Part shown: positions 126 to 28,126 of the stretch, piece by piece | Numbering within the stretch: the first letter of the stretch is position 1 | Layout of the letters: every line of letters begins with the position of its first letter | DNA from: Alphaproteobacteria bacterium | GTDB taxonomy: Bacteria; Pseudomonadota; Alphaproteobacteria; Bin95 | Length of the DNA: 64,000 nt | NCBI GenBank assembly: GCA_963665325.3 | Contig: OZ224045.1 | Coordinates: forward strand, 576,001-640,000 | Direction of reading: 5' to 3' | Notes under the pieces: model-generated | The model's input: only the letters and a program-made list of their open reading frames with translations | Databases searched by the model: none | Told to the model about the DNA's origin: nothing | Position numbers and translations under genes: made by a program

Positions 126-723
126 CGCGCGGAGTCGCCCCGGGCTGCCGTCACCGGCAGGTCCTCGTACCGATCCGGACCAGATCGCCGCCCGGCGTCG
201 AGAGTCGCCATGATGAAATCGCCCGGAGGTCTCATGTCGTTGGCCTGACGACGATATGACGCTCGCCATGCGTGAGCCCGCAGGCGCCGTCGTGCCCTCG
301 GGCGTCGGTGTCGCCCGCGCAACCGGCGCAGCGAACCGCGGCCGTGGCGAAGGCGGTTGAGCGAAGCATGGCCACGACTATACCGCCCAATCGGTGGCGT
401 TCGACAGCGGCGCGGCCAATCCCTTCGAGAGAGAGGCGGAGCCCGACATCGTTCCTGGGCTCGGCCCGCTTGATGTGGATGCGTGTCGTGACGTCCGCCC
501 CTCGGGTGCGTCCGACCCGGCGCCGGCTGAGCGTCGGTCGGCGATGGTGGTCAAGGTGTGCGTCGCGCGGCGTTCGCTCTCTGTCGGCGTTCATTGTATT
601 GATTTGCCGCCGGGTTCGGTTTACGGTTTGCGCAAGTGGGACAGGCGATGCTTGGCGGGATTGTGTGCGGCGTCGGACGGGGCGCGGGACGGTCAGCCGG
701 GCGACAGGTTCGGAGGCGACACG

Positions 724-1011
724 ATGACCATGACGGACAAGACGCGTGACGTGCTGCGCGCGACGGGAGCGAGTGTTCTGGAGGCGCTGGGTCTGGACGG
801 CAAGGCGAACGAACTGTTTTCGTCCGGGGGGTTGACAAGCGCCGCTGAGGGTTCCGACAGTATAATGGTCGCCGGGTCGCCGGGTCGCCGGGTCGCCGGG
901 TCGCCGGGTCGCCGGGTCGCCGGGTCGCCGGGTCGCCGGGTCGCCGGGTCGCCGGGTCGCCGGGTCGCCGGGTCGCCGGGTCGCTCCACCTGCGTCTGCA
1001 CGCCGGCATGA
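724..1011 (+). CDS. 95-aa leader ORF containing the tandem repeat (VAGSPGRR)n; its stop overlaps the adhesin start (ATGA)
   Basis: GGAGG at 712-716, 7 nt before ATG 724; TGA 1009-1011 overlaps ATG 1008. Confidence 0.6.
   Translation: MTMTDKTRDVLRATGASVLEALGLDGKANELFSSGGLTSAAEGSDSIMVAGSPGRRVAGSPGRRVAGSPGRRVAGSPGRRVAGSPGRSTCVCTPA
867..984 (+). repeat. Perfect tandem repeat (GGTCGCCG) x14 plus 6 bp
   Basis: Read directly from the sequence. Confidence 0.98.
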
Positions 1012-4000
1012 GCGCGTTTGCATGGCTGCGCCGGCCGGGCCGTCCATCCTCCCCGCCTGAGACTTCCTCCTCCGCCGGCGGGCGCTGCGCGTCCCGCCGG
1101 CCGCATTCTTCCTCCGACAGTTTCGGTCTTTCCTCCGCCCGCGCCGCAGCGGGGGCGCGTCCATTATCCCGCCATCTGCGCCACGGCCTCGCCGCGGCGC
1201 TGCTGAGCCTTCCGCTGCTCGCCGGTCTGGCGACCGGGGCCGTAGCGCAAACGCCTCTCGCCGACAGAATCGTCCCGCCGGCCACCCTGACGGTCAATGA
1301 GGGCGACGGAAACATCGACATCACCCTGCCGGGGAAGCCTGGATATGATGAGGACGATATGCATATCAGTTCCACGACCGGCAGTGCCACTCGCGGCACC
1401 GGCAGCGTTTGCCAAGCTGGAGAGGATTTTCTCCTTCCCAGTACGAATTCGCATAGCATTAATGTCAGAATTGCGGACACAAGTCACACATTCAGCGGAT
1501 TCACCATGTGTGACGACAGCGACGATGAAACCGACGAGACATTTACGGCGCGTTGGCAGTCAACCGCCGGTTCTCCCTTCAACAGCAATGCCGCGAATTG
1601 CGCATCCACATCGTCTTGCACCAGCGAAATCACCATTCGCGACAACGACCCCACGGTGGTGACTCTCGCCCGCGTGGGCAGCGGCGCGGTGACCGAGGGC
1701 GGCAGGGTCGAGTTCACGGTGACGCTGGGCCGCGCGCTGGTGGCGGGCGAGACGATCGACGTGCCGCTGTCGATCTCCGGCACAGGGGTGACCACCGGCG
1801 ACTGGAGCCTGGGGGCGAAGTCCGGTGCGGCCAACACGGGCGTCGGCCTGCGCGATGTCGGCACGGCGACCCCGAAGGTGCGCTTTTCCGGTGCGGGCGC
1901 GCAGACGGCGACGCTGGAGCTGACGCCGACGAATGAAGGCACGACGGAGGGCGCGGAGACCTTCACCGTCGCGCTCGGCTCGAACACCGCCTTCGACGCC
2001 GCCGCGCTCGGCACCGATGTGGGCGGCGGCGCGGACCCGCATGGCACGGCCAACGCTTTCACCGTGGTCGTGAACGACGGCGGCGCGGCTCCGCTCGCCG
2101 CCAAGCCGTCCACGGTACGCGAGGGGGGTGTCAGTTTTGTCACCGTCACCGGTTTTCCGTCCAGCTGGGGCGCGCCCCGGATAAGGTCCCTTGCCGGCGC
2201 CACGGCGTCGCTCAGGTGCGACCATGCCGATGACGGGCTGCCCAACCTTTTTAACAACCTCGATGTCTGCGTCGGCCTGGCCGACGGCACCCGCACCCTG
2301 GGGCATTGGGACGGCGTCGCGTACAGGCTGACGCTGACCGTGGTGGCCGACGGCGTGGCCGAGAACGAAAGCCTCACGGTGACGTTCGAGGATTCGACCG
2401 ACGCCAGCAGGACCAGGACGGCCGACATCGCGCTCGACGACAGGTCGCCCCTGCCGTTCATCAGCCTCGAAGCGGTTGTCGGCACCAATCCCGGCGACGT
2501 GGTTTCCCCGTCCCCGCATGCCGTCACGGAGGGGGGTGCGTTCAACCTCCGGGTGAAGATGGATCCCTGGTTCAGGCTGGCCACTCCGGTCACCGTGAAC
2601 TACTACCTCGCCGACTACCACGGCGAGCGTGTGGTCCGGGGGCCGAGCCTCACGGATCCGAAGCGGGATCGGGACCCCAACCCCCGGAGCATCGAGATCT
2701 TGGCCGGGCAATCCGCTACGGTCATTCACATACCGACCGTGGCGAGCCCCGACCTCGATGGCGACAGCAAGGTGGAGGTCATCCTGCTGGGCGGCAGGGA
2801 CTATGCGACCAGCACGGGCAAGCTGACGCTCACGGTCCAGGACGCGGACCCGGTCACGAACATAGACGACAACACGCGGGCGCAGATGCTGGCCACGCCC
2901 TCGACGCTGACGCTCGGCGCCGATGCGGCTTCGGTGACGGAGGGCGGCGAGGTGACCTTCACGGTCACGGCCGCCCCGGCGCCGGGCTACGACCTCCCGG
3001 TGCACCTGGGCGCGTCGGAGGAGATGGGCGCGGGCCTGGACTATATCGGGCTCGAACGGGCCCGCACGGTGACGATCCCGGCGGGCGCGACCTCGGCGGC
3101 CTGGACGGTCACGACCTGGTCGGACGACAAGCAGCGCGCCGACGGCACGGTGGTGGCCCGGATCAAGCCGGGCGACGGCTACACGGCGGGCACGCCGTCG
3201 ACGGTCACCGTGGCCCTGCTCGACGACGACGCGCCGGCGCTGGACCCGTCGCTGGTGGCGCAGGTCAGAATACTTGCGGGGCAGACCCATAACGGCGCGG
3301 CGCATGTCCTGCGCTGGCGGCGGGTGCTGGTGGCGTTCGGGGTGGAGGCGTATCCGGGCGTGACGGCGATGACGGCGGCGCAAGCCGAGGCGAATGCCCG
3401 TCGCTACAGCAGCCCGCTCTGGCCCCGGATCGCGGAGGCGATCGGGGCGATCGGGGCGGCGGGGAGCGACCCCGCGCCGCAGCAGGCCGCGACGCAGCAG
3501 GCCGCACCGGCGGTGGACCCGGCGCTGGTTGCGCTGGTCAGGAGCTACGCGGCGGAGACCCATAACGGCGCGGCGCATGTGGAACGCTGGATGCGCGTGC
3601 TCGCGGCTTTCGGCGAAGACAACGGCCGTGCGCCGATGACGGCGGCGGAGGCGCGGACCTATGCCGACCGGGGCTGGACACGCTGGGACCCGGTGGTCGT
3701 GGCGATCGCGGCGCTGGAAGCGGCGCCCGAGCCGGAGCCGCAGCCCGTAATCCCGCCGGCGGTGAGCGTCGCGGCCGGGGAGGCGGTCTCCGAAGGCGGC
3801 GGCGCGGTGTTCACGCTCACGGCGGCGCCGGCCCCGGCATCGCCGCTGGCGGTCGAGGTGACGGTTGGCGCCGAGGGCGACTTCGGCATTGCCGCCGGCG
3901 CGCGGACGGTGACCGTTCCGACGAGCGGCAGCCTCGTGCTGACCCTGGCGACGGTCGATGACGGTACGGACGAGCCGGACGGCTCGGTGAGCGTGACCCT

Positions 4001-6332
4001 GAACGGCGGCGACGGCTACACGGTCGGTTCCCCGGCATCGGGCGCCGTCGCCGTGACGGACGACGACCTGCCGCCGCCGGTGGTCTCGGTGACGGCGAAG
4101 GCCGGCTCCATTACCGAGGGGGCGGGCGCGGTGTTCACGGTGACGGCGGACCGGGCGCCGGATGCGGCGCTTGCGGTGCGGCTCACGGTCTCGGAGGAAG
4201 CGGGCAGCGACTTCGTGGCCGCGGGCGACGAGGGCGGTCGCACGGTGACCATCCCGGCCGGCACGACCGGGGTTGCGCTCACCGTGGCGACGGACGACGA
4301 CGCGGCGGACGAGCCCGACGGCTCGGTGAGCGCGGCGGTGGATGCCGGCGCGGGCTACACGGTGGCGGCGTCTCCGGGGGATACGGCCTCGGTCGCGGTG
4401 GCCGACAACGACGCGGCGGCCACCGGGGCGTCGCTCTCGGTGGACGACGCGACGGTGAAGGAAGGCGCGGGGCTGATGTGGTTCACGCTCCGGCTGAGCG
4501 CGCCGTCGGAGCGGGCGGTGCGGGTGTCGTACCGGACCCGGGAGTCGAGCCCGGTGTCGGCGCGGCAGGGCCGGGACTACCTTGCCGCCGGCTGGCATCT
4601 CTACTTCCAGCCGGGCGAGACCGAGAAGCGGGTGTGGGTCTGGGTCTACGACGACAGCCATGACGAGGACCCGGAGACGTTCGAGTTCGTGCTGACGGAG
4701 GCGACGGTGGTGCCGATCGCGGACGGCGTGGCGGTGGGGACGATCGTGAACGACGACCCGCTGCCGGCGGCGTTCCTGGCGCGCTTCGGGCGCACGGTGG
4801 CGGAGCAGGCGCTGGACGGCATCGCGGGGCGCATGGCGGCCCCGCGCAACCCCGGCATGCAGGGGACGCTGGCCGGGCAGGCGCTCAACTTCGACCCGGC
4901 CGCCGGCCGGCCGGCAGCGGGCGCAGCGCCCGGCGCAACGCCGGCGGACCGCGATACGGCGCTGGCCATGGCCGACATCGCGCGCGGCTTCGGTGCGGAT
5001 GCGTCCGCCGCGGTATCGCCGGGCGGCGACCGGTTCGGCGACGCCCGTGCCGGCACGTCCCTGGCGCAGACCCGTTCGATGACGGCGCGCGACGCGCTGC
5101 TCGGATCGAGCTTCTCGCTGACCGGTCAAGCGGACGGCTCGGGCGGCAGCCTGGCGTTCTGGGGCCGGGCGGCGCAGGGCGGCTTCGACGGCCGCGAGGG
5201 GACGTTCTCGCTCGACGGCGCGGTCACCACGGGCATGCTCGGCGCGGACTACGCGCGCGGCAAGTGGCTGGTGGGCCTGGCGCTCGCGCAGAGCGCGGGC
5301 GAGGGCGACTACCGCGACACCGGGGTCAGTCCCCGTCCCGACGGCCAGAGCTGTCCCGACGGCGTGGACGCCGAACTGTGCGGCGGCGCCGTGCGCGCGG
5401 GCGACGGCAAGGTGGAGGCGTCGCTGACGGCGGCGATCCCCTATGCGGCGTTGCAGGCCTCGGAGCGCCTGAAGCTCTGGGGCGCGGCGGGCTACGGCAC
5501 GGGCGAGGTGACGCTGAAGACCGCGCTGGGCGACAGCTACAGCTCCGACACCGCCTGGAGCATGGCGGCGGCGGGGCTCAGGGGCGACCTGCTGGCGCCC
5601 CCCGCGGAAGGCGGCGGCCCGGCGCTGGCGCTCACTTCGGACGCCCTGTGGACGCGGACCTCGTCTGAGAAGACCCGCGACCTCGCGGCCTCGGACTCCG
5701 ACGCGACCCGGCTCAGGCTCGGGCTGGAGGGCAGCTGGCGGTTCGCGATGGAGGGCGGCGGGTCTCTGGTGCCGAAGCTGGAGATCGGCGCGCGCCATGA
5801 CGGCGGCGATGCCGAGACCGGCTTCGGGGTCGAGCTCGGCGGCGGGATCGCGTGGAGCGACCCGGCGCTCGGTCTCTCGCTCGACGTCTCGGGCCGCACG
5901 CTGCTGGCGCACGAGAACGACGACCTGAAGGACCGGGGCTATGCGGCCTCGCTGGCCTTCGATCCCGCTCCGGCGACGCAGCGGGGTCCGTCGCTCAACC
6001 TGCGCCAGGAGTTCGGCGGGCAGGCGCAGGGCGGGCTCGACGCGCTGTTCCAGCCGGCGACGCTGGAGGACCGCACGGGCAGTGAGGCGACCTCCCGCTG
6101 GGCGATGGAAGCCGCGTACGGCTTCCCGGCCTTCGGCGGGCGCTGGACCGGCAGCCCGCATGTGGGGCTGGGGCTCGCCACCGGCGCGCGCGACTACAGC
6201 CTCGGCTGGCGGCTGACGCCGGAGGCCGCGAACGCGCCCGACCTGTCGTTCGGCCTCCGGGCGACCCGCCGGGAGAGCGATACGGCGCAGGCGGAGCACA
6301 CCGTGGGGTTCGAGGTCCGCGCGCGCTGGTAA
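1008..6332 (+). CDS. Large autotransporter-like adhesin: signal peptide, Calx-beta/Ig-like repeats, duplicated helical domain, C-terminal beta-barrel
   Basis: Signal-like RHGLAAALLSLPLLAGLATGAVA-Q; repeated V.EG...F.V.L and DD..DE.DG.V motifs; barrel region with RHDGGDAETGFGVELGGG; terminal W. Confidence 0.85.
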   Translation: MSAFAWLRRPGRPSSPPETSSSAGGRCASRRPHSSSDSFGLSSARAAAGARPLSRHLRHGLAAALLSLPLLAGLATGAVAQTPLADRIVPPATLTVNEGDGNIDITLPGKPGYDEDDMHISSTTGSATRGTGSVCQAGEDFLLPSTNSHSINVRIADTSHTFSGFTMCDDSDDETDETFTARWQSTAGSPFNSNAANCASTSSCTSEITIRDNDPTVVTLARVGSGAVTEGGRVEFTVTLGRALVAGETIDVPLSISGTGVTTGDWSLGAKSGAANTGVGLRDVGTATPKVRFSGAGAQTATLELTPTNEGTTEGAETFTVALGSNTAFDAAALGTDVGGGADPHGTANAFTVVVNDGGAAPLAAKPSTVREGGVSFVTVTGFPSSWGAPRIRSLAGATASLRCDHADDGLPNLFNNLDVCVGLADGTRTLGHWDGVAYRLTLTVVADGVAENESLTVTFEDSTDASRTRTADIALDDRSPLPFISLEAVVGTNPGDVVSPSPHAVTEGGAFNLRVKMDPWFRLATPVTVNYYLADYHGERVVRGPSLTDPKRDRDPNPRSIEILAGQSATVIHIPTVASPDLDGDSKVEVILLGGRDYATSTGKLTLTVQDADPVTNIDDNTRAQMLATPSTLTLGADAASVTEGGEVTFTVTAAPAPGYDLPVHLGASEEMGAGLDYIGLERARTVTIPAGATSAAWTVTTWSDDKQRADGTVVARIKPGDGYTAGTPSTVTVALLDDDAPALDPSLVAQVRILAGQTHNGAAHVLRWRRVLVAFGVEAYPGVTAMTAAQAEANARRYSSPLWPRIAEAIGAIGAAGSDPAPQQAATQQAAPAVDPALVALVRSYAAETHNGAAHVERWMRVLAAFGEDNGRAPMTAAEARTYADRGWTRWDPVVVAIAALEAAPEPEPQPVIPPAVSVAAGEAVSEGGGAVFTLTAAPAPASPLAVEVTVGAEGDFGIAAGARTVTVPTSGSLVLTLATVDDGTDEPDGSVSVTLNGGDGYTVGSPASGAVAVTDDDLPPPVVSVTAKAGSITEGAGAVFTVTADRAPDAALAVRLTVSEEAGSDFVAAGDEGGRTVTIPAGTTGVALTVATDDDAADEPDGSVSAAVDAGAGYTVAASPGDTASVAVADNDAAATGASLSVDDATVKEGAGLMWFTLRLSAPSERAVRVSYRTRESSPVSARQGRDYLAAGWHLYFQPGETEKRVWVWVYDDSHDEDPETFEFVLTEATVVPIADGVAVGTIVNDDPLPAAFLARFGRTVAEQALDGIAGRMAAPRNPGMQGTLAGQALNFDPAAGRPAAGAAPGATPADRDTALAMADIARGFGADASAAVSPGGDRFGDARAGTSLAQTRSMTARDALLGSSFSLTGQADGSGGSLAFWGRAAQGGFDGREGTFSLDGAVTTGMLGADYARGKWLVGLALAQSAGEGDYRDTGVSPRPDGQSCPDGVDAELCGGAVRAGDGKVEASLTAAIPYAALQASERLKLWGAAGYGTGEVTLKTALGDSYSSDTAWSMAAAGLRGDLLAPPAEGGGPALALTSDALWTRTSSEKTRDLAASDSDATRLRLGLEGSWRFAMEGGGSLVPKLEIGARHDGGDAETGFGVELGGGIAWSDPALGLSLDVSGRTLLAHENDDLKDRGYAASLAFDPAPATQRGPSLNLRQEFGGQAQGGLDALFQPATLEDRTGSEATSRWAMEAAYGFPAFGGRWTGSPHVGLGLATGARDYSLGWRLTPEAANAPDLSFGLRATRRESDTAQAEHTVGFEVRARW

Positions 6333-8911: not shown

Positions 8912-9478
8912 ATGCGGCGTCTGGACCTCGATCTTGCCGTCCGCCGGGTGCGGGACATCCGGCTTGCGCTGGCCGGGCTGCTGGTGCTGTCGATGACGGC
9001 CAATCTGACGCTGACCCTGGGCTTTGCCGGAAGGGAGACCGTGACCGTGCTGCTGCCGGCAACGGCGGGTCCGGCATGGGAGCTCGGCAGCGGCGGCGCG
9101 GGCATGGGTCCCGCCGGCACCCGGTATCTGGAGGACATGGCGCGCACGGTGGCGGTGACGCTGCTGACGCTGACGCCGGAGAACGCGGCCCATGTGCGGC
9201 TGGCGGCGGCGCGGATGAGCCACCCGTCGGCGCGGGGCGCGATCGGCGCCTGGGTCGAGGCCGAGGCCGCCCGCATGGCCGGGCGCGACCTCGCCAGCGC
9301 CTTCTATCCCGACGGCATCGAGGCCGATCCCGAGCGGCTCATGGTGGAGATCGCGGGCGAGCTGGTGACCTGGATCGGGCGCGAGGAGGCCGCGCGCGAG
9401 GACCGGCGCTACCGGCTCGCCTTCCGCATCGAGGCCGGGCGCATCGGCCTGCTGCGCTTCGAACAGATGGAGGACTGA
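8912..9478 (+). CDS. traE: F-type pilus assembly protein TraE
   Basis: N-terminal TM helix; YLEDMARTVAVTLLTLTPEN; synteny. Confidence 0.88.
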   Translation: MRRLDLDLAVRRVRDIRLALAGLLVLSMTANLTLTLGFAGRETVTVLLPATAGPAWELGSGGAGMGPAGTRYLEDMARTVAVTLLTLTPENAAHVRLAAARMSHPSARGAIGAWVEAEAARMAGRDLASAFYPDGIEADPERLMVEIAGELVTWIGREEAAREDRRYRLAFRIEAGRIGLLRFEQMED

Positions 9479-9480
9479 CC

Positions 9481-10263
9481 GTGAAACGGATACATCGGTG
9501 GGCGCTCGCCATTGCATGCGCCATGTTCATGGGCGCGGTGCTGGCGCCCGCCCCGGCGCTGGCGATGCAGATCCTGGAGGCGGCCGATCATGCCGAGCTC
9601 GCCGCCGAGATCTCCGCGACGGGCGTCAACCGGATCGCGCTCGCGGGCGACCGGATCGCGCGGGTGGTGCGGGCGCCCGACGGCTACGCGGTCGAGCACG
9701 ACGCGGCGTCGGGCGACCTCTATCTGAGGTCCGCCGTCGCGGGGTCTCCGGAGACGGGGACCGGACAGGCGGTCCGATACGATCCGGTCACGCTGTTCGT
9801 CGGCACGGAGCGGGGCTTCACCTACCGCCTGACGCTGACGCCGGCGGCGCGGGGCTCGGCGCAGATCCTGATCCTCAACGCGGCGGTCCCGCCGGACGCG
9901 GCGACCGCCGTCCCGGCCGGCCGGGACAGTCCCCGTGTGGCGGCGCTGGTGCGGCTGGTGCGCGCGGTGGCGCGGCGCGAGCTCCCGGCCGGCTACGAAA
10001 TCCATGCCGGCGGGCCTTCCCTTTCCGGCCTCATCCCGATCGAGACCTGGCGGGGCCCGCGCTTCCGGGCGCTCGTGTTCGAGGCCGGCCGTTCCGCGCC
10101 CGCCGGCGGGGACGGCCCCGCGGGCCTCGCCGGGACCATCGGGGACAGCCTGGCTCCAGGCCGCCTTGCCGCGCTCTGGCTCGCCGCGCCCGGCAGCGGG
10201 CCGAGCGGTGGGCGTCTCGCCGTGGCGATCGTGGAGACCGCCCGCATGGAGACTCCGCGATGA
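9481..10263 (+). CDS. traK: F-type secretin-like TraK
   Basis: Signal peptide; ISATGVNRIALAGDRI and TLFVGTERGFTYRL; GTG start. Confidence 0.85.
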   Translation: MKRIHRWALAIACAMFMGAVLAPAPALAMQILEAADHAELAAEISATGVNRIALAGDRIARVVRAPDGYAVEHDAASGDLYLRSAVAGSPETGTGQAVRYDPVTLFVGTERGFTYRLTLTPAARGSAQILILNAAVPPDAATAVPAGRDSPRVAALVRLVRAVARRELPAGYEIHAGGPSLSGLIPIETWRGPRFRALVFEAGRSAPAGGDGPAGLAGTIGDSLAPGRLAALWLAAPGSGPSGGRLAVAIVETARMETPR

Positions 10264-11534
10264 GCGCGCGGCAGGACACTTCCGATCCCGGCGCGGTGCG
10301 GCGGCGCCAGCTGCTGCTGTTCTCCGCGGTCGCGGCGGTCCTGCTGGTCGTGCTGGCCGTCTGGCTTGGCATGGGCGGCGGCGGGCAGCCGGCGCCGCGC
10401 GGCGGCATCGAGGCCGGGATCGTGGCGCCGGACGCGGCCGAGCAGGTCTGGACGCGGCGCTCGGAGGCCCGGCTCGGCGGGATCGAGACGCAGCTGCGCG
10501 AGATGCGCCAGGAGGCGCGCCGGCTCGCCGCCGACAACGACCGCCTGCGCACGAAGCTGGAGCGGGACACCGCCGACGCGCGCACGGTGATCGACCGGCA
10601 GGCGGCGGTGATGGACGAGCTCGAACGCCGGCTCGGGGCGCCCGTGCAGCCGGGAACGGTGCCCGGCGGCGGCACCGCGGCGGATCCGTACTTCCGCGTT
10701 CCGTCCTCGACGCCTGAGACCGGCGGGGAGGCGCCGACGCGACCGGTCGCACCCACGCGCATGATCGAGACCTTCGATCTGGAAGGCGGCCCGCGGTCGT
10801 CGGCGACCGATCCCCGAACCGGGCCCGAGCTGGTGGCGGACGCCGTGGCCAAGCCGGTCTCGGCCTGGCTGCCGGCGGGCGCGCACGCCTCGGCGATCGT
10901 GCTCGCGGGCGTCGATGCCTCTGCCGGCATCTCGTCGCAGGGCGATCCCCGCCCGGTGCTGATGCGCATCACGGGTCCCGCCTGGACCGCTGCCGAGAAT
11001 GGGACTGCCCTTCAGGTCGATATCGACGGCTGCACGGTGACCGGCGCGGCCCATGGCGATCTCTCCTCGGAGAAGGTCTACGTCCGCTTCCGCACCATGA
11101 CCTGCGCCGGGCCGGAGCCGGGCACGGTGGTCGAGACCGAGGTCGCGGGGTTCGTCGCGGGCTCCGGCAAGACCGGGGTGCGCGGCCCGGTGGTGAGCCG
11201 CGAGGGGGCGCTGGTCGAGAAGGCGTTCCTCGCCGGCGTGGTCTCCGGCGTCGGCCAGGGCGCGGCCCAGGCCTTCCAGCCCCAGGCGGTGGCCACGGGC
11301 GCGAGCGGCGCCGCGGTCGCCAACACCGCGCTCGGCGACATCGGCCGCGCGGGTCTCGGCGCCGGGGCGTCGAGTGCGGGGCAGAAAGTGGCCGACTACA
11401 TGATCCGGCGCGCCGAGCAGTACCAGCCGGTGATCCAGCTCCAGGCCGGCACGAAGGTGACGCTGGTGTTCCTTGAAGGCGCCCGCATCGACGGCCGCGC
11501 CGTGCAACCGCAATCGAACAACGGAGGGAAATGA
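10260..11534 (+). CDS. traB: TraB (VirB10-like) core complex protein
   Basis: TM plus coiled coil; LPAG...GVDAS; GDLSSEKVYVR; RAEQYQPVIQLQAG. Confidence 0.92.
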   Translation: MSARQDTSDPGAVRRRQLLLFSAVAAVLLVVLAVWLGMGGGGQPAPRGGIEAGIVAPDAAEQVWTRRSEARLGGIETQLREMRQEARRLAADNDRLRTKLERDTADARTVIDRQAAVMDELERRLGAPVQPGTVPGGGTAADPYFRVPSSTPETGGEAPTRPVAPTRMIETFDLEGGPRSSATDPRTGPELVADAVAKPVSAWLPAGAHASAIVLAGVDASAGISSQGDPRPVLMRITGPAWTAAENGTALQVDIDGCTVTGAAHGDLSSEKVYVRFRTMTCAGPEPGTVVETEVAGFVAGSGKTGVRGPVVSREGALVEKAFLAGVVSGVGQGAAQAFQPQAVATGASGAAVANTALGDIGRAGLGAGASSAGQKVADYMIRRAEQYQPVIQLQAGTKVTLVFLEGARIDGRAVQPQSNNGGK

Positions 11535-11535
11535 G

Positions 11536-12105
11536 ATGGTCGGTTCGCGATTGGGTAATCGGGCCATGGCGCCTGTGGCTGCGGCCGTCGCGGCCCTCAT
11601 GCTCGCCGGATGCTCCTCGGGCCACATCGGTGAGGACTGGCAGTGCCCGCTGGCGAAGGGCGGCTCCTGCGCCAGCGTCGCCGCCGCCGATCCGGCGGTG
11701 CCGAAGACGGGCGCTGCGCGGACGATGACGACCGGGCAGCCGATCCGGCTGCTGCCCCGCGACATGGAAGCCGAACGCGCCGATCTACCGGCGATGGAGC
11801 CCCGATCCTGTGAGACCGCCTGCGGCTTCGATCCCTTCGCCTGGCTCGCGCGGCTGTTGGGCGGCAGCGATAACGACGACCGCCCCGGCTACGGTGGTGC
11901 CGAACCGGAAACGATCGATTCCGCCGCCGCCGCTCTTCCGGCCGATCCCGCCTCCGGCAGTGACGCCGGGCAAGCCGACGGTCTGCGCACCGGCGAGGTC
12001 GTGGCGCGCATCTGGATCGCGCCCTTCGTCGACGCCGACGGCGTCTACCGCGAGGCGTCCCATGTCCGGGTGGTGCTGGAGCCGGCCGGCTGGAGGCTCC
12101 GGTAA
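11536..12105 (+). CDS. traV: TraV lipoprotein
   Basis: Lipobox LAGC; WQCP...GSCASV; RIWIAPFVDADG. Confidence 0.9.
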   Translation: MVGSRLGNRAMAPVAAAVAALMLAGCSSGHIGEDWQCPLAKGGSCASVAAADPAVPKTGAARTMTTGQPIRLLPRDMEAERADLPAMEPRSCETACGFDPFAWLARLLGGSDNDDRPGYGGAEPETIDSAAAALPADPASGSDAGQADGLRTGEVVARIWIAPFVDADGVYREASHVRVVLEPAGWRLR

Positions 12106-14705
12106 TGGCGGCGGGAGCGCTCGGCCGGCTGCTGGAGATGTTCGAGGGGCCGGAGGCGCCGGGTCCCTGGACGCCGCCCGCCATGCCGGCCGCGCTGCAC
12201 GCGCTGCTGCCCTGGCGCGCCTGGGACGAGGCGAGCGAGCTCTATGTCAACGCGGGCTCCGTCGGCTTCGTGCTGGAACTGCCGCCTTTCGCCGGCATCG
12301 ACGCGGAGACCCTGGGGGCGCTTTCCGGCACGCTCGCCGACGCCGCACCCGAGCGCTGCACCATCCAGATCGTCCACTGGGCGAGCCCGCGCTTCGGCGC
12401 CGCCATGCGCGCCTGGGCCGAGCCGCGTGTCGGGACCGGCGGGGCGCTGAACCGCATGGGCGAACGCCGCCGGAACCTGCTTGCCCCCGGAGGATGGCGC
12501 CGGCTGCATGAAGGGGGACCGCCCTTCACCCTCTCGGACTACCGGGTGTTCGTCACCGCCTGCCTCGCCGGCGGTCCCGGTCCGGCGGCGGAGACCGCGC
12601 TCGGCGCCTTTCGCCGGGCGCTGGAGGGGACGCTCGCCTCGGCCGGCGCGACGGCCCGGCGGCTGGAGCCCGACGGGCTGCTCTCGCTGGCGGTGGAACT
12701 GACCGCGCCCGACATTGCCGGACGCCATGACGGGGGAACCGAACGCCCGGTGCGGCGCTGGGCGCCGCGCGATCCCCTGCACGAGCAGTGCATCGCGCCC
12801 GGCCGCGCGCTCACGGTCCACCCGACGGGCCTCACCTTCCATCACGGCGACGGGGGCCGCGACGGCGGCTCCGGCGACATCGCCGTCCGGGTGCTCAGCG
12901 CCATCGCCTTCCCCGAGGTCTGGCCGGGCTGGCGCGGCAACGCGCTGATCGGCGACTTCCACCGCGACTTCCTCCAGCCCGGCTGCCCGGTGCTGACCTG
13001 CCTCACCCTCACCACCGGCGACGAGGCGGCGGGCGAGAAGGCGTTCCTCAAGTCGGCCCGCGCGACCCAGCAAGCCGGCACCGGCATCGCCCGCTACCTG
13101 CCCGGCCTGCCCGAGAAGGCGCGCGACTGGCAGACCGTCACCGAGCGGCTCAAGGACGGCGAGCGGCTGGTCCGCGCCTGCTACATGGCGGCGGTCTATG
13201 CGCCGCTGGATGCGCTCGACGAGGCCGAGCAGGCGGTGCGCGCGATCTACCACGGCCAGGGCTGGCGGGTGAACGCCGAACGCTACATGCAGCTGCCCTC
13301 CTGGCTCGCCTGTCTGCCGATGGCATCCGCCGGCGGGCTCGACGCCGATCTCGAACGCATGGGCCGGATGAAGACCCTGCTGACCGCCTCGGCGGTCAAT
13401 CTCGCCCCGATCCATGGCGAATGGCGCGGCCAGCCGATGAACCCCGACAACCCGCCCGCGCTCTTTCTCATAGGACGAAGGGGCCAGCCGGCCTGCTGGT
13501 CGCCCTTCGCCAACGAGGCGGGCAACTACAACGTCGCCGTCACCGGCAAGTCCGGCTCGGGCAAGTCGGTGCTGATGCAGGAGCTGGTGACCGGGCTGAT
13601 CGGCGCCGGCGGCGAGGCCGTGGTGATCGACGACGGGCGCTCGTTCCAGCACACGGCGGAGGCGCTCGGCGGCGCGTTCATCGCCTTCGGCAAGGATCCG
13701 GCCTGCCTCAACCCCTTCGCCATGATCGACGCCGGGACGGCCGCCCACGACGGCGACTACCGGGAAGAGTGCTTCGCCATGCTGGCCGGCGTCATCGGGC
13801 GGATGGCAAGGCGAAGGGGCTCCATCGACGACATCGAGGCGGCGCTGATCGCCGAAGCCATCGCGGCCGCGTGGGACGAGGCCGGCAACGCCGCCGATCT
13901 CGGCACCGTGCGCAAGAACCTGGAATCGAGGGACGACCGCCGCGCCGCCGACATGGCGACCGCCCTCGGCCCCTGGTGTCCGGGCGGCGCCATGGGGCGG
14001 CTGTTCGCCGGCTCGAACGTGCCGGACCTTGAGAACGCCATGACGGTGTTCGAGCTGGCCGAGCTCAAGGGACGAGGCGACGTGCAGGCGGTGGTGCTGA
14101 TGCTGGTGGTCTTCCTCGCCACCCAGCGCATGTATCACGGCCCCCGCACCCGCGCGAAGGCGATCGTCATCGACGAGGCCTGGGACCTGCTCTCCGGCGA
14201 GGACAGCCGCGCCTTCCTCGAAGGCGCGGCCAGACGGGCCCGAAAATATCGCGGCTCCCTCATCACCGGCACCCAGTCGGTCAACGACTACTACGCCAAC
14301 CCGGCGGCGCGCGCCGCCTGGGAGAATTCGGACTGGGTGATCTTCCTCGCCCAGAAGGACGAGTCGGTCGAGTTGCTCAAGTCCGAGAAGCGCATCCATT
14401 GCGATCCCGGCATGGAGCGCGCGCTCAAGAGCCTGACCACCGCCGACGGCCGCTATGCCGAGCTGGTGCTGCACGGCCCCGACGGCTGGCGGGTGGCGCG
14501 GCTGGTGCTCGATGCCTGGTCGGTGGCGCTGTTCTCCTCGCGCGGCCCCGCCTTCGCGGCGGTCGAGACCTTGAAGGCCGAGGGGCTCTCCACCGTCCAG
14601 GCCATCGACCGGCTCGCGGGGGACGGTCCCCTCGCGGGCGGCGGCGCCCTCGCCGGCCCCGCTGCCGGACATTCCGAACCATCCGAAACGGAGGATGCGG
14701 CATGA
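12105..14705 (+). CDS. traC: TraC (VirB4-like) ATPase
   Basis: NYNVAVTGKSGSGKS Walker A; IDEAWDLL Walker B; RRARKYRGSLITGTQS. Confidence 0.95.
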   Translation: MAAGALGRLLEMFEGPEAPGPWTPPAMPAALHALLPWRAWDEASELYVNAGSVGFVLELPPFAGIDAETLGALSGTLADAAPERCTIQIVHWASPRFGAAMRAWAEPRVGTGGALNRMGERRRNLLAPGGWRRLHEGGPPFTLSDYRVFVTACLAGGPGPAAETALGAFRRALEGTLASAGATARRLEPDGLLSLAVELTAPDIAGRHDGGTERPVRRWAPRDPLHEQCIAPGRALTVHPTGLTFHHGDGGRDGGSGDIAVRVLSAIAFPEVWPGWRGNALIGDFHRDFLQPGCPVLTCLTLTTGDEAAGEKAFLKSARATQQAGTGIARYLPGLPEKARDWQTVTERLKDGERLVRACYMAAVYAPLDALDEAEQAVRAIYHGQGWRVNAERYMQLPSWLACLPMASAGGLDADLERMGRMKTLLTASAVNLAPIHGEWRGQPMNPDNPPALFLIGRRGQPACWSPFANEAGNYNVAVTGKSGSGKSVLMQELVTGLIGAGGEAVVIDDGRSFQHTAEALGGAFIAFGKDPACLNPFAMIDAGTAAHDGDYREECFAMLAGVIGRMARRRGSIDDIEAALIAEAIAAAWDEAGNAADLGTVRKNLESRDDRRAADMATALGPWCPGGAMGRLFAGSNVPDLENAMTVFELAELKGRGDVQAVVLMLVVFLATQRMYHGPRTRAKAIVIDEAWDLLSGEDSRAFLEGAARRARKYRGSLITGTQSVNDYYANPAARAAWENSDWVIFLAQKDESVELLKSEKRIHCDPGMERALKSLTTADGRYAELVLHGPDGWRVARLVLDAWSVALFSSRGPAFAAVETLKAEGLSTVQAIDRLAGDGPLAGGGALAGPAAGHSEPSETEDAA

Positions 14706-15304
14706 CGCAAAAAGCAAACGGCGGCGAAAGGTCGCTCAACTGGCCGGACGACCCGGAGACAGTGACGGCCGCCGATATCGACTTCACCGCGCTGGCGCAT
14801 GTGCTTGCCAACACCTGCCGCCGGGGCGGCTGTGTGCGTTCCTACCACTCGGTGGCGGCGCACGCGGTAATCGTCTCGGAGGAGATCGAGGCGCTCGACG
14901 GTCTCGCGGACGAAGACCGGCGGGTGCTGGCTCTCCATGCGCTCCTTGCGCCCGCGCCGTCGGCCTGGCTCCGGGCCCGGCTGCCGGACTCGCAGCGGGC
15001 GGCGGAGCGCGTTGGAAAGCTCGCCACGGGGATCGAGGCCGCGGTGCGCGAGGCCGCCGGGCTCGATGCCGTGCTGGACGAGGACCACGGCGAGCTGTTG
15101 CGTTTCGTTACCCGAATGGCGGCTTCGGCCGAGCGCCGCGACATCATGGACGGCAACGCAGCCGCGAGCGCCGGCGTGGCCTTCCCGCCGCTGAAACGGC
15201 GCATCCGTTCGATCATGCCCGACAAGGCGGCGGAGGCCTGGCTCGCTCGCTTCCGGGCGCTCGCCGGACCGGCCGGCGGCTCGTCGGAAGGGCCGCGAGG
15301 CTGA
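14702..15304 (+). CDS. YfbR/YfdR-like HD-fold protein with a degenerate HD motif
   Basis: IDFTALAHVLANTCRRGG...YHSVAAHAVIVS matches the family N-terminus; ALLHD is replaced by ALLAP. Confidence 0.65.
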   Translation: MTQKANGGERSLNWPDDPETVTAADIDFTALAHVLANTCRRGGCVRSYHSVAAHAVIVSEEIEALDGLADEDRRVLALHALLAPAPSAWLRARLPDSQRAAERVGKLATGIEAAVREAAGLDAVLDEDHGELLRFVTRMAASAERRDIMDGNAAASAGVAFPPLKRRIRSIMPDKAAEAWLARFRALAGPAGGSSEGPRG

Positions 15305-15308
15305 CACG

Positions 15309-15695
15309 ATGCGTTCCGACTCCGCGTGGCCGGCGATGGTGTCCGCCGTGCTGCTCTCGGGCGCGGTGGCGGCGGCGGTCGCGGCGGCCGTCCTCCGATA
15401 TGGGGTCGATCCGCCACCGCGCATCGCCGGCGTTCGTCTTGCGGAAATGACCGCGGCCTGGACGACGCGGGCGGCAGCCGAAGGCCGGCCGGCGTCGGAG
15501 GTCCGCGCCTGGGGCGCGGCGCTGGAGACCGCTCTCGACCGCGTGGCGCACGATCATGGCGTCGTTCTGCTGCCTGCGCGCGCCGTCGCCGCCGGGGCGC
15601 CGGACCTGACGCGGCAGGTCAAGGACGTGCTGGCGGCGATCCTGGCGGGTCGCGGGTCCGGGCCGTCCGCGCTCTCCGGCGGAGAGCGGCCGTGA
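15309..15695 (+). CDS. trbI: TrbI (F-type)
   Basis: N-terminal TM; VLLPARAVAAGAPDLT motif; position before traW. Confidence 0.8.
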   Translation: MRSDSAWPAMVSAVLLSGAVAAAVAAAVLRYGVDPPPRIAGVRLAEMTAAWTTRAAAEGRPASEVRAWGAALETALDRVAHDHGVVLLPARAVAAGAPDLTRQVKDVLAAILAGRGSGPSALSGGERP

Positions 15696-16279
15696 CCGCA
15701 TCGCGCCCGATGTTCGCCCGGCGGGACGCCCATGCGCGCCGCCGCCAGGTCGGCCTGGCGGTCATGATCGCGCTGGCGGCGCTCTGGCTCGGCCTCGCCT
15801 CGCGGGTGCATGTCAATGCCAGCTGGTCGGACCAAGCCTGGGGCTATGCCGCCTTCCCGCTGTTCGGCAAGGACCCGAGGATCGGCGACCGGGTGCTGTT
15901 CGAGCCTCCCGAAGCGCTGGAATCCCGGGTGCCGTATCTGAAGACCGTGCGCGGCGTGTCGGGCATGGCGGTCGCGGTCTCGGAAGACGGGACGGTCTTT
16001 CTCGACGGCGTTGCGGTCGGCCGCGCCAAGACCCACGCACTGGATGGCCGGCCGCTCGAAGCGATCTCGCCGGGGATTATCCCGGCCGGGCATTACTTCC
16101 TGCATGCCGATCATCCCGACAGCCACGACAGCCGCTACGCCGAAATCGGCCTCATGCCACGCGAGCGCATCCTCGGCCGCGCCGTTGCGCTCCCGGACCT
16201 GCCATGGCTCGGCCTGAAGGGGCCGCTGGTGGGGCCGGAAGGCGCCGGCGATGACAAGAGCGCGGGGAAGCCGCGATGA
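15692..16279 (+). CDS. S26-family pilin-processing peptidase (TrhF-like)
   Basis: VNASWS catalytic Ser; YLKTVRG Lys; HPDSHDSRYAEIG. Confidence 0.85.
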   Translation: MTASRPMFARRDAHARRRQVGLAVMIALAALWLGLASRVHVNASWSDQAWGYAAFPLFGKDPRIGDRVLFEPPEALESRVPYLKTVRGVSGMAVAVSEDGTVFLDGVAVGRAKTHALDGRPLEAISPGIIPAGHYFLHADHPDSHDSRYAEIGLMPRERILGRAVALPDLPWLGLKGPLVGPEGAGDDKSAGKPR

Positions 16280-16965
16280 CGCGCCCCGCCGTCATGATGC
16301 TTGCCACGGTCCTTGCCGCCCTGCCGGTCGCCGGCACCGCACCCTATGCCTGGGCGAAGGACCTGGGCGTGCGCGGCGCGACCTGGCCGGTGGCGGAGCC
16401 CGACCTGCTGGTCGAGATCGAGGCGCGGCTTCTCGACATGCAGCGTTCCGGCGACCTGGCGCGGCTGGAGGAGGAAGCCCGCACCCGCGCCCGACAGAGC
16501 CTGGAAGAGCCCGAATCGGTGCCCGGCATTGCACCGGCAGGCGAGCAACGCAGCCGCCTGTTCGATCCCGCCATTACGGTCGCGCGGGACATTCGCACGC
16601 CCGACGGCGTCCTCATTGCCGCCGCCGGGACGAGGGTGAACCCGCTGAAGCGCCTGCCGCTCACCCGCGACCTGATCTTCATCGACGGCAGGCGCGAGGC
16701 CGAAATCGCCTGGGCGCTCGGCCATGACCGGCCCGCGAAGATCGTGCTGCTTGCCGGGCGTCCGCTCGATCTCATGCGCCGCCATCGCCGGCCCTTCTTC
16801 TTCGACACCGGCGGCAGGCTCGCCGCGCGCTTCGGCATCGCCGTGACGCCCACGCTGGTCGAACGGGATGGCGTTCGACTGCGCCTCACCGAAATCCCGG
16901 TCGAGGATCCCGGATCGGAGGCCGGGGCAGGCCGGGACCCTGGTCAAACCGGAGAGAAGGACTGA
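16276..16965 (+). CDS. traW: TraW
   Basis: KDLGVRGATWPVAEPDLL; FDPAITV; GTRVNPL; FFDTGGRLAARFGI. Confidence 0.93.
   Translation: MTRPAVMMLATVLAALPVAGTAPYAWAKDLGVRGATWPVAEPDLLVEIEARLLDMQRSGDLARLEEEARTRARQSLEEPESVPGIAPAGEQRSRLFDPAITVARDIRTPDGVLIAAAGTRVNPLKRLPLTRDLIFIDGRREAEIAWALGHDRPAKIVLLAGRPLDLMRRHRRPFFFDTGGRLAARFGIAVTPTLVERDGVRLRLTEIPVEDPGSEAGAGRDPGQTGEKD
16909..16932. repeat. 24-bp REP-like palindromic insert in traW (CCCGGATCGGAGGCCGGGGCAGGC)
   Basis: Near-identical to the copies at 17204, 18666 and 20440. Confidence 0.8.
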
Positions 16966-16969
16966 ATCC

Positions 16970-17383
16970 ATGCTGACCGTCAACCGCGCGACCCTGGTGG
17001 GCCATGCCGGGCGCGACCCCGAGATCCGCACCCTGCCGAACGGCGGCAAGGCGGCGGCCTTCCCGCTCGCCACCGCCGAAAAGTGGACCGACCGGGAAGG
17101 CAAGCCCGTGGAGGCCACCGACTGGCACCGGGTGGTCGTCTACGGCGCGTCCGTCGAGATCGTCGGGACCATGCTGCGCAAGGGCGATCCGGTCATGGTC
17201 GAGAGCCTGCCCCGGACTCGATCCGGGGGCCGCATCGCGACCCGGCAATACCGCGACCGCGACGACAACGACCGCACCGTCACCGAGATCGTCGTCGCCG
17301 GGCCGCAGGGCATGGTGAACATCCTCGCCGGGCGGCGCGGGTCGGAGTCCGGCCCGGAGTCCGGGGCGGGCGACGAAACATGA
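16970..17383 (+). CDS. ssb: Single-stranded DNA-binding protein inside the tra operon, with an 8-aa insert and no acidic IPF tip
   Basis: VNRATLVGHAGRDPEIR...TDWHRVV...LRKG. Confidence 0.9.
   Translation: MLTVNRATLVGHAGRDPEIRTLPNGGKAAAFPLATAEKWTDREGKPVEATDWHRVVVYGASVEIVGTMLRKGDPVMVESLPRTRSGGRIATRQYRDRDDNDRTVTEIVVAGPQGMVNILAGRRGSESGPESGAGDET
17204..17227. repeat. 24-bp REP-like palindromic insert in ssb (AGCCTGCCCCGGACTCGATCCGGG)
   Basis: Removing it restores the canonical V.VEGRI.TR motif. Confidence 0.88.
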
Positions 17384-18384: not shown

Positions 18385-18425
18385 ACCCGCTGAAACGCAC
18401 CGCCAGACACGACTCCGACAAGACC

Positions 18426-22588: not shown

Positions 22589-22601
22589 CCCCCACTATAT
22601 A

Positions 22602-25502: not shown

Positions 25503-25516
25503 CGCGGCCGGTGCGT

Positions 25517-25870
25517 TCAGTTCCCGCGCATCAGCCGTTCGTGCTCCTCGTGGATGCGCATCCAGGCGTAGGAGCCGGTCCGGGTGCCCCAGTCGAAATC
25601 CTCGCCGCTTCCGTCGGCAGGCTCGTAGTTCCGGAACGCCGACCAGTCCCGGTGGCGCAAGCCCTGCCACAGGGCGGCGGCGAGGGCGGCGGCGACCGTC
25701 CAGGCGATCGCGGCCATCCAGAGGGGGCCGATGGCCTCCGTGCCGGATCCGGCCGCCAGCGACGCGGCGGAGTACAGTGCCGCCAGGGCGAACCCGCCGA
25801 GCACGAAGAGGCGCTCCCGCCAGGTGCTCGGGCGTTGCCGCCGGTCCGTGGATGTTCCCGTCATGTCCAT
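25517..25870 (-). CDS. Small two-TM membrane protein, candidate entry-exclusion factor
   Basis: Two hydrophobic segments; convergent with traG, like eex of SXT/IncC. Function inferred from position only. Confidence 0.55.
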   Translation of the reverse strand: MDMTGTSTDRRQRPSTWRERLFVLGGFALAALYSAASLAAGSGTEAIGPLWMAAIAWTVAAALAAALWQGLRHRDWSAFRNYEPADGSGEDFDWGTRTGSYAWMRIHEEHERLMRGN

Positions 25871-26004
25871 GGTCCTCCATCATACCGGCGCCGGCGCGGA
25901 TTGCAGCCGCCGCCCGCCTCGGGCGCGACGCTCTCCGGCCCCGCCTTCTTCGGCCCGCGCCCCGCCGGCCTCCGGCTCCTTGCGGCGCGGCCCGCGATGC
26001 GGCG

Positions 26005-28125: not shown

Positions 28126-28126
28126 C

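Follow-up and report, generated by a model that had tools for sequence, protein, structure and literature searches.

The perfect octamer array near the start of the window (by which we mean the whole stretch of DNA analysed, 64,000 nucleotides) is read here, with moderate confidence, as a slipped-strand contingency tract in the translated 5' part of a surface-protein gene carried by an ICE-like element, with the frame that fuses a short leader ORF to the body of the gene as its ON state. Ribosomes would load at GGAGG-N7-ATG 724 and read a non-conserved leader into the array, where the gain or loss of units by slipped-strand mispairing would set a new frame; since 8 equals 2 modulo 3, each unit gained or lost shifts the frame. 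In the ON frame, ribosomes would pass into the body and yield a pre-protein fusion, whose leader, (GRRVAGSP)n and Ser/Pro/Arg-rich stretch all lie ahead of the signal peptide and would thus be removed when the protein is exported. The other two frames would end at conserved stops, either the TGA overlapping ATG 1008 or TGA 1058-1060. As ATG 1008 is devoid of a ribosome-binding site, these frames would be OFF, or at most leaky via re-initiation at the ATGA.

Table 1. Features of the locus and of the element that carries it (window coordinates)
Feature	Position	Strand	Basis or remark
Shine-Dalgarno GGAGG of leader ORF	712..716	+	sequence
Leader ORF, present frame	724..1011	+	47 unique codons, then repeat-encoded VAGSPGRR units, stop TGA 1009-1011
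Promoter-like module in leader	826..866	+	G6, TTGACA 832-837, 23-nt spacer, TATAAT 861-866
(GGTCGCCG)x14.75, perfect tandem array, putative hypermutable tract	867..984	+	Tandem Repeats Finder
Conserved linker box CCACCTGCGTC	986..996	+	after most arrays
ATGA, body start codon overlapping leader stop	1008..1011	+	without upstream Shine-Dalgarno
Body ORF, 1774-aa surface protein	1008..6332	+	Calx-beta, LapA-like domain, putative C-terminal outer-membrane beta-barrel
Conserved 17-mer encoding SPPE	1051..1067	+	contains TGA 1058-1060, overshoot-frame stop
Signal-peptide-like segment, residues 55-81, RHLRH-GLAAALLSLPLLAGLA-TGAVAQ	1170..1250	+	read from translation
F-type conjugative transfer genes	8912..31168	+	TraE, TraV, TraC, TrbI, TraU, TraN, TraH, TraG, coupling protein, TrwC relaxase; Pfam
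Four tandem tyrosine recombinase genes, far end of element	39368..44162	-	Pfam

The original prediction had described this locus as a leader ORF whose repeat may set one of three translational outcomes for the downstream adhesin, and its anatomy proved exact to the base: GGAGG 712-716 and ATG 724 seven bases downstream are both in the sequence, as are the ATGA overlap of ATG 1008 with its TGA and the TGA at 1058-1060. The array has a period of 8, 14.8 copies and 100% matches (score 236), and neither GGAG nor GAGG is found before ATG 1008. In the ORF listing, the leader frame is open from 394 to 1011 and starts at ATG 724; no stop interrupts the body frame from 849 onward, and ATG 1008 is the earliest ATG, GTG or TTG within it. 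The frame arithmetic is likewise correct. With the present number of units (n), the leader stops on the ATGA, so that the window copy is currently in this state; n-1 or n+2 units fuse leader and body (92 + 1774 = 1866 residues for n-1), and n+1 units carry the leader to the TGA at 1058-1060. A G6 run (826-831) is present, but its proposed role as a second slip point was not confirmed, the run being invariant (G6 in 5/5 copies of the window leader type). The linker box is conserved as nucleotides, since the two subfamilies do not read it in the same frame with respect to the body ORF.

About 30 homologous loci, from the window genus and related records, each have a perfect array of 8-, 7- or 5-base units, always with a short leader ORF, preceded by a ribosome-binding site, on its upstream side and the pre-signal-peptide region of a large surface protein on its downstream side. 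All 26 loci that were found by homology of the 5' coding region, not by the repeat, carry an array, and all 26 arrays are perfect (19 octamer, 4 pentamer and 3 heptamer; a period of 3, 6 or 9 occurs in none); two more homology-found regions without an array, one of them a contig start, stand outside the 26. Only nine perfect arrays with a 7- or 8-base period and at least five copies exist in the whole 5.58-Mb genome, which places the window array far beyond chance; the window octamer array is found at four genomic sites. A count of repeat units in homologous loci, the check put forward with the original prediction, was run and bore out variable length: the ortholog in a sister genome (G009) has 21.75 units versus 14.75 in the window genome (G000), with identical flanks. 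Other homologous pairs differ by 32 versus 19 units (C1b/L158) and 14.8 versus 11.8 units (L134/L151), and the longest arrays reach 38 units. Loci locked by a short array were searched for in the genus and none was found. A scan of genome contigs for the bare repeat returned 113 stretches, mostly in unrelated GC-rich genomes, 11 of them with the same module; a search of the plasmid collection gave no DNA or protein match. A role of G-quadruplexes was considered and dropped: G3N5 runs occur only in GGGTCGCC-type arrays and are missing from those built of other units (GGATCGCC, GTCAGCCG, AGCCG etc.).

All three outcomes foreseen by the frame arithmetic occur among the paralogs. Among 31 scored loci, 5 are fused, 8 have their leader stop on the ATG or slightly short of it, and 18 overshoot it; four further loci, missed by the anchor pattern, were left unscored. 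Unit counts modulo 3, which the original prediction had proposed to examine for a bias, favour neither the coupled nor the fused state; overshoot is the commonest. Against equal thirds, the 5/8/18 split gives a chi-square of ~9, calculated on loci that are related paralogs; most loci are not fused, and nothing further is drawn from the split. Fused frames lead into bodies of 1665-1965 aa including the leader, and the other frames stop 1-74 nt past the start position.

A productive fusion is supported by nine loci (L130, L131, L132, L150, L152, L160, L191, L206 and L101) that have no body-frame ATG between array and signal peptide, so that only fusion to the leader can express them. At five of these (L131, L132, L150, L152 and L191), no stop occurs in the body frame over 1344-1671 nt, the full length of the DNA retrieved. 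In one complete genome (G014), all three loci are of this fusion-only kind, and one of them, L150, is fused. Gene callers elsewhere have assigned fused N-termini with repeat-encoded peptides to 7/263 family proteins, and P0097, whose leader fusion contains less than two units, is a locked in-frame form. On the strength of the nine ATG-less loci and the five long open body frames, we interpret the array as a translational switch of the classic slipped-strand type, with the fusion as its putative productive state. The original prediction had let the repeat act through the frame of the upstream ORF from ATG 724, by coupling rather than by frameshifting the gene body. A slippage tract that acts through the reading frame is supported; the exclusion of the gene body is not supported in the form proposed, because at the nine ATG-less loci the leader is the 5' end of the gene.

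Several signs in the sequence suggest that the leader is translated. GGAG or GAGG lies 4-16 nt before the leader ATG in 7/11 leader types, as compared with 9.7% of all genomic ATG trinucleotides (binomial 2e-5, with three of the types sharing ancestry); GC3 exceeds GC1 and GC2 in 11/12 leader types; and leader alignments contain real indels of 3 and 12 nt. No amino-acid conservation was found among the leaders, and their substitutions are flat by codon position (15/16/17, 7/6/8 and 4/2/4), which indicates that the leader peptide itself is not under selection.

These flat substitutions also count against the fusion model, as does the rarity of the fused state. A further difficulty is the position of the signal peptide, ~150-250 residues from the N-terminus of the fusion, which is unusual for Sec export. 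Moreover, a well-conserved TTGACA-N20-TATAAT lies inside the leader ORF, right at the array; if it were the main promoter, ATG 724 would not be on the mRNA. Finally, the equivalent of ATG 1008 is kept at every DNA-level locus of the window subfamily, which speaks against a pure fusion model, since a fusion does not require an ATG.

This last observation counts in favour of the strongest alternative, which we regard as possible, though on balance doubtful. In the ATGA subfamily, a leader that ends at the ATGA itself, or at a TGA located 5-8 nt upstream of the start codon, would give the true ON state, with the terminating ribosome re-initiating at ATG 1008 to make the native pre-protein; the fused frame would be a second ON state or aberrant, and run-over to TGA 1058 would be tightly OFF. 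Without a Shine-Dalgarno sequence, ATG 1008 needs a delivered ribosome, and ATGA overlaps are described as a route of termination-reinitiation coupling (PMC6728339, PMC10666635). The same overlap with an SD-less downstream start recurs at L159, L161 and L079. At the DNA level, the +4 position stays A in four different second codons (AGC, AGT, AAG and ACC), whose positions 2 and 3 vary, and the linkers of C4, C3a, C1b and L158 have a second in-frame TGA just before the ATG. The ATG-stop state accounts for 8/31 loci; in the ATGA subfamily, however, it is not enriched relative to overshoot (8 versus 12 loci), and at two ATG-stop loci (C1b and L118) the body ORF is broken. The ATG is absent altogether from the nine fusion-only loci, and 5/38 predicted N-termini starting at this Met begin with MG, which precludes a TGA overlap, so that the ATGA is not universal. 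Another SSR locus of the same genome (C1:1244758) has three successive ATGA overlaps followed by a GPP34-P450 gene. This chain would favour coupling, but it is only partly kept in two array-less relatives; as independent support it was therefore given low weight. For the ATGA subfamily, a coupled state is thus a plausible extra possibility beside the fusion.

A composite of several of these elements appears more doubtful still. Here, the first gene of the ICE would be under a three-state routing of ribosomes (fusion, ATGA re-initiation or tight OFF), the arrays would in addition be joints at which recombination exchanges leader and promoter modules between many adhesin cassettes, and TTGACA-N20-TATAAT would drive transcription through the array.

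The promoter-like module also invites an explanation in which the frame plays no part, and which we consider unlikely. Transcription would start just after TATAAT 861-866, placing the array in a 5'-UTR, where its length would tune expression in a graded manner at the level of transcription, RNA processing or translation of ATG 1008. The module adjoins the array at most loci with perfect hexamers, TTGACA and TATAAT (or TACAAT), and a T-rich stretch upstream; TTGACN-N12-35-TA[TC]AAT has only 18 matches in the genome, of which 7 adjoin SSR arrays. An unrelated locus, at which a fusion is impossible, also has this module in front of a heptamer array, 355 nt upstream of a P450 gene. Its spacer, however, is usually 20 nt (23, 32 or 19 in a few loci) instead of 16-18, and a promoter scan of the window called none at the module, the spacer exceeding 18. 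As a reference for spacing, the rRNA promoter was of no help: a single 16S site was found, with no TTGAC...TA...T match upstream. In the leader types C3a and L131, the module is absent altogether, the loci without a start codon after the array are not expressible in this way, and the SD-led ATGs and the GC3 periodicity of the leaders are left unexplained. The array RNA folds worse than its shuffles (-99.3 kcal/mol versus a mean of -117.8, z +4.4); a long hairpin with a downstream arm, as in the hmw genes of Haemophilus influenzae, is not predicted from folding.

It is very improbable that the arrays have no regulatory role at all and are recombination-prone repeats spread by gene conversion among paralogs, with incidental frame states: mosaics of unit types (GGTCGCCGx29 then GGATCGCCx8 at C3b; GGATCGCCx7 then GGGTCGCCx12 at L148), leader-cassette pairings that differ between G000 and G009 and body ORFs broken at C1b, L130, L193, L206, L118 and L123 would fit such an origin, whereas the perfection of the 26 homology-found arrays, the lack of any period divisible by 3, the constant position between an SD-led ATG and the body, and stops in both non-body frames soon after the array at every locus speak against it.

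The gene behind the array is the first of an ICE-like element of ~44.5 kb, of which there are several copies. The stretch homologous to the C3 copy begins 529 nt upstream of the window and ends at 44,008, and the genome (67% GC, five replicons) has seven copies of TraC. The placement of the adhesin inside an ICE, as originally predicted, is borne out by type IV secretion genes, relaxase, coupling protein and integrase in one repeated block; no tRNA gene was found within the window. An HTH_17 protein is encoded at 7494-8267. On the composite reading given above, the OFF state could also lower the expression of the transfer genes by polarity, as no terminator was detected on the way from the adhesin to the tra genes. 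In the surface protein, the signal-peptide-like segment follows 54 residues after Met1 and, judged by eye from the translation, has a typical n-h-c organization with an AxA-like end. At the C-terminus, TIGR01414 matches with 22.6 bits (cut-off 16) over 67 residues only, and the Pfam autotransporter domain has no match at E up to 1. An AF2 model (pLDDT 72.7, pTM 0.62) predicts ~20 strands; Foldseek ranks 22-strand TonB-dependent receptors first (TMq 0.40), with a TMt of 0.58 for the BrkA beta-domain. The putative barrel domain is always C-terminal among the 150 matches listed of 7030 relatives. The surface-protein family itself has more than 2000 members.

Host-restricted pathogens with small, AT-rich genomes are the textbook bearers of SSR contingency loci. 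In the present case, such a logic would operate in a GC-rich genome of five replicons, with unusually long units (8, 7 or 5 bases) and at ~30 loci associated with a conjugative element that has multiple copies. The ICE would stochastically switch its own adhesin if the surface protein aids aggregation or mating, and if the OFF state is polar on the tra genes, phase variation would be linked to conjugation. Should the ATGA state be productive, the family would provide a documented hypermutable tract acting through translational coupling; none of the papers listed in literature searches describes such a tract controlling the use of an ATGA overlap, and none in the larger listing contains the word reinitiation. 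With its naturally varied arrays, leaders and linkers, the family also lends itself to probing how distant from the N-terminus a signal peptide may be.

Among known systems, licA gives graded expression levels and resembles the window locus as a translational SSR switch with possibly more than one productive frame, so that more than two expression states may be possible. In licA, alternative upstream starts lie in different frames, whereas a second ON state here might arise by termination-reinitiation at the downstream ATGA. Both hmw1A and hmw2A of H. influenzae and the family described here combine a large adhesin gene with long 7-8-base arrays that follow immediately on promoter or promoter-like elements. 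The hmw SSRs (PMC12721329, PMC2651432, PMC3309571) have units of 7, 8 or 9 bases, including an octamer of 12-15 copies, and are transcribed as untranslated 5'-UTR, with a graded hairpin processed by RNase III; the window array, in contrast, lies in an SD-led ORF and has no predicted hairpin, and at some loci a start codon is missing downstream of the array. The ATGA itself resembles the stop-start coupling of genes described in PMC6728339, with a 4-base overlap and an SD-less downstream start; unlike in such fixed overlaps, a hypermutable tract would here decide whether the upstream ribosome reaches the ATGA in the frame suited to its use. The opa genes of Neisseria, of which ~11 carry CTCTT repeats in the leader-peptide coding sequence (PMC3745409), share several traits with the family: (i) both are multigene surface-protein families in which each copy has its own non-triplet SSR before the mature-protein part; (ii) by analogy, the frame would set ON or OFF, with most copies OFF at once; and (iii) the repeat-encoded residues would likewise be removed with the signal peptide. 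Unlike the opa pentamer, the units are 8, 7 or 5 bases long, in arrays of up to 38 units, and lie upstream of a long Ser/Pro/Arg-rich pre-signal stretch, not in the hydrophobic core. The start is supplied by a separate, non-conserved leader, one subfamily has an internal SD-less ATG within an ATGA, and, again unlike opa, the genes reside on ICE-like elements in a genome of 67% GC.

The octamer array between a short leader ORF and the long ORF of a surface protein (the body) is a real, well-supported contingency locus. The signals on which the original prediction was built match the sequence base for base (see table), and its frame arithmetic is correct. With 14.75 units, as found, the leader stop falls on the ATGA overlap; loss of one unit or gain of two fuses leader and body into a protein of 1866 aa, and gain of one extends the leader to the second TGA. 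The body frame is open from 849, ATG 1008 is its first canonical start, and no GGAG or GAGG lies upstream of this ATG. Perfect period-7 or period-8 arrays with at least five copies number only nine in the whole 5.58-Mb, five-contig genome (G000), in which the window-type octamer array occupies four sites.

Coordinates of the features (plain numbers, window positions; C, contigs of G000; L, related loci elsewhere)
Feature	Position	Strand	Basis
Shine-Dalgarno GGAGG	712-716	+	sequence
Leader ATG	724	+	sequence
G6 run	826-831	+	sequence
Octamer array	867-984	+	period 8, 14.8 copies, 100% identity
Body start ATG 1008, overlapped by TGA 1009-1011	1008-1011	+	sequence
Second TGA	1058-1060	+	sequence
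Body ORF	1008-6332	+	1774 aa
TraC copies	C1:588105, C1:514371, C3:1034406, C5:30044(-), C2:11751, C4:52701, C4:849553(-)
Loci without an ATG after the array	L130, L131, L132, L150, L152, L160, L191, L206, L101
Mosaic or cassette-swap loci	C3:1020477-1020781; C5:41825-42099; L148; L159; L125; L127
Two extra heptamer arrays	C1:1337013-1337112 (-) and C3:709149-709276

Searches with the DNA encoding the body start (window 985-1260) and with a conserved 17-mer around TGA 1058 were used to collect paralogs; the former returned many loci, mostly from genomes of the same genus. In all 26 homology-found loci with upstream DNA available, a perfect array lies immediately 5' of the conserved region: 19 are octamers (units GGTCGCCG, GGATCGCC, GGATTGCC, GTCAGCCG, GAGCCGCC), four are pentamers (AGCCG, AAGCC) and three are heptamers (GGATGCC, ACGCCGG, AGCCGAG), and none has period 3, 6 or 9. 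Two homology-found regions lack an array. In one of them contig C2 itself begins (C2:1-260), its first bases lying in the linker just past the expected array end; here the assembly was probably split, or never closed, at a repeat. Two further heptamer arrays in G000 accompany other genes: one belongs to the leader of a He_PIG/Big_9 surface protein (899 aa) and is at present in the fused frame, and the other lies ~100 nt upstream of the gene for a 696-aa TbpB-like/factor-H-binding-like lipoprotein. 3' of most arrays stands a box, CCAYCTGCGTC (window 986-996), whose frame relative to the body differs between two subfamilies, so that it is conserved as DNA or RNA rather than as peptide. The best-conserved stretch of the entire 5' region across paralogs is the 17-mer CCCCGCCTGAG.CTTCC (window 1051-1067); the surrounding region contains several CCTCC motifs, complementary to the leader GGAGG, and its GC content by codon position is flat (0.71/0.77/0.73).

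The original prediction implied that unit counts should differ between homologous loci, and they do: the sister genome G009 has 21 full units against 14 between identical flanks, and two other homologous pairs are unequal (32 vs 19 and 14.8 vs 11.8 units). The arrays of the C3 copy (GGTCGCCGx29 then GGATCGCCx8) and of locus L148 (GGATCGCCx7 then GGGTCGCCx12) are mosaics, that on C5 contains one internal 7-base unit, and leaders joined to one and the same body cassette differ between G000 and G009. Mosaic arrays and leader swaps imply that the arrays are also recombination joints, apparently sites where paralogs cross over. In G009, the ortholog of the window gene (L123, on contig C1 of that genome) is identical up to window position 1446 and diverges completely thereafter, and its body frame stops 438 nt past the SPPE peptide motif; this copy is thus interrupted or rearranged.

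The frame of the Shine-Dalgarno-led leader relative to the body was assigned at 31 loci; four others were left unscored because the anchor pattern missed them, and two loci begin inside the array. The leader is fused to the body at five of the 31, stops at eight, either on ATGA or on a TGA located 5-8 nt 5' of the ATG, and at 18 is in the third frame, mostly ending at the TGA within the SPPE motif; since the loci are related, this skew says only that most copies are not fused. Neither the coupled nor the fused state is in excess. The four copies with GGTCGCCG arrays in G000 cover all three states, the window showing ATGA, C3 and C5 fusion, and C4 overshoot.

Which state is productive is indicated by nine loci, from at least five genomes, whose body frame lacks an ATG between array and signal peptide. 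GTG and TTG before the hydrophobic core are also absent from most of them (L150 has a GTG four codons before the core). Five of the nine keep an open body frame over 1344-1671 nt, as far as the DNA examined reaches, so these are not obvious wrecks. Having no start after the array, such genes would be translatable only from the leader ATG through the array. Across the family, these sequences argue for a gene that begins with the leader and is ON when fused. Leader-plus-repeat fusions are predicted in seven of 263 family proteins examined from other assemblies; P0097, spotted by eye, is a further fusion; its array is shorter than two units, making it a locked in-frame form.

Several features speak for translation of the leader. 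In seven of 11 leader types, with three types sharing ancestry, the ATG is preceded at 4-16 nt by a GGAG/GAGG core, vs 9.7% of all genomic ATG trinucleotides. Eleven of 12 leaders have their GC maximum at codon position 3 (pooled 0.55/0.52/0.69), and the two clear indels between homologous leaders measure 3 and 12 nt. Substitutions, spread equally over the three codon positions, and the unrelated sequences of different leader types count against a functional leader peptide. The leader looks like a translated, sequence-free launch pad. The octamer encodes one cyclic octapeptide, GRRVAGSP, in all frames; since this stretch is N-terminal to the signal-peptide-like segment (residues 55-81), the repeat-encoded peptide would be absent from the mature protein. 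The fusion protein would be exported with a putative signal peptide 150-250 residues from its N-terminus.

The anatomy of the proposed three-state switch stands, and termination-reinitiation at ATGA, a known coupling device (PMC6728339), might add a productive state to fusion; we consider this a viable but less likely reading, and coupling is not the best-supported mechanism. In the window subfamily, whose linker has ~22 extra bases with GGC(C)ATGA, the ATG is kept at every DNA-level locus, the next base is always A though the second codon varies (AGC, AGT, AAG, ACC), and a Shine-Dalgarno sequence never precedes it, all of which fits reinitiation. However, five of 38 predicted N-termini beginning at this Met start with MG, which destroys the overlap, and the other subfamily does without the ATG. 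Elsewhere in G000 (C1:1244717-1245276), TTGACG-N20-TATAAT and (GCGCCGT)x22.9 are followed by three successive ATGA-overlapping ORFs; those at this heptamer (C1:1244758) encode 35 aa, 64 aa and a 675-aa GPP34-cytochrome P450 fusion, but the chain is only partly retained in relatives without the array.

Fusion as the ON state also has to be viewed against a promoter-like module. TATAAT (or TACAAT) adjoins the array at most loci, with TTGACA 20 nt upstream, preceded by a G run and a T-rich stretch (window 815-866, with an equivalent site at most related loci). The spacer is mostly 20 nt, 23 in three leader types including that of the window, and once each 32 and 19. Only 18 such hexamer pairs (spacers 12-35) exist in the genome, and seven adjoin repeat arrays. 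The module also stands, as TTGACG-N20-TATAAT, ahead of the heptamer at the P450 locus. The module is absent from two leader types (C3a, L131); a noisy public scan gave 11 further loci with it, whose displayed titles are mostly Alphaproteobacteria bacterium. Twenty nucleotides exceed the spacer length of an ordinary sigma-70 promoter, and a promoter scan called none at the module. Spacers of 19-20 nt are typical of promoters controlled by MerR-type activators. A candidate regulator of the module is therefore an HTH_17 protein (excisionase/AlpA-like, MerR-fold) whose gene, at window 7494-8267, stands between that of the surface protein and the tra genes. The module may be an internal promoter, and transcripts crossing the tract may favour slippage, as is reported for hmw (PMC12721329). 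If it is active, its mRNA would lack ATG 724, which favours a 5'-UTR array, as in the hmw adhesin genes of Haemophilus (PMC12721329; PMC2651432; PMC3309571), but this model is improbable, since it cannot express the ATG-less loci and shuffled sequence is predicted to fold better than the repeat RNA.

The surface protein has Calx-beta and LapA-like domains, and its C-terminal 447 residues model as a ~20-strand beta-barrel (pLDDT 72.7). An NCBIfam autotransporter barrel model matches just above its cut-off (22.6 vs 16 bits) over 67 residues only, and Pfam gives no autotransporter match; Foldseek ranks TonB-dependent receptors first for the barrel (TMq 0.40), and the BrkA translocator reaches TMt 0.58. 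As far as this evidence goes, the product is an autotransporter-like surface protein and putative adhesin. Relatives of the C-terminal domain number 2173 at 90% clustering, among 8000 candidates scored, and 7030 at 50%. On the same strand, 3' of the gene and with no terminator-like site found before the next genes, follow an F-type transfer cluster and a relaxase. Four tyrosine recombinase genes, in tandem and on the minus strand, close the element (window 39368-44162); that at 41938-42825 is shorter, its catalytic domain matched only in part. Seven copies of the TraC/TraU/TraG/TrwC cluster are spread over all five contigs, and at five of the seven TraC copies a repeat-bearing paralog lies 11-14 kb upstream in the same orientation. 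The sole genomic match to the universal 16S 5' primer motif (C4:764141) is on the 1.10-Mb contig C4, not the largest. The stretch homologous to the C3 copy starts 529 nt upstream of the window and reaches 44,008, with an interruption at 985-2087, where the N-terminal portion of the passenger is variable. Transfer cluster, relaxase, recombinases and multi-copy homology bear out the designation 'ICE adhesin', the adhesin role being putative.

Among the papers listed by the literature searches, none was seen to describe a repeat acting through a stop-start overlap, and a term search of the recent review PMC11868660 gave no match on start codons or coupling. Of the systems known, the opa family of Neisseria comes closest: ~11 of its genes carry non-triplet repeats within the sequence coding for the leader peptide (PMC3745409). 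As a precedent with more than two states, licA of Haemophilus, whose CAAT tract is preceded by several start codons (PMC2992063), comes nearest. New in the present case are the long units, the separate sequence-free leader and the long stretch before the signal peptide, as well as the possible ATGA state, the fixed promoter-like module, the multi-copy ICE link and the type of host.
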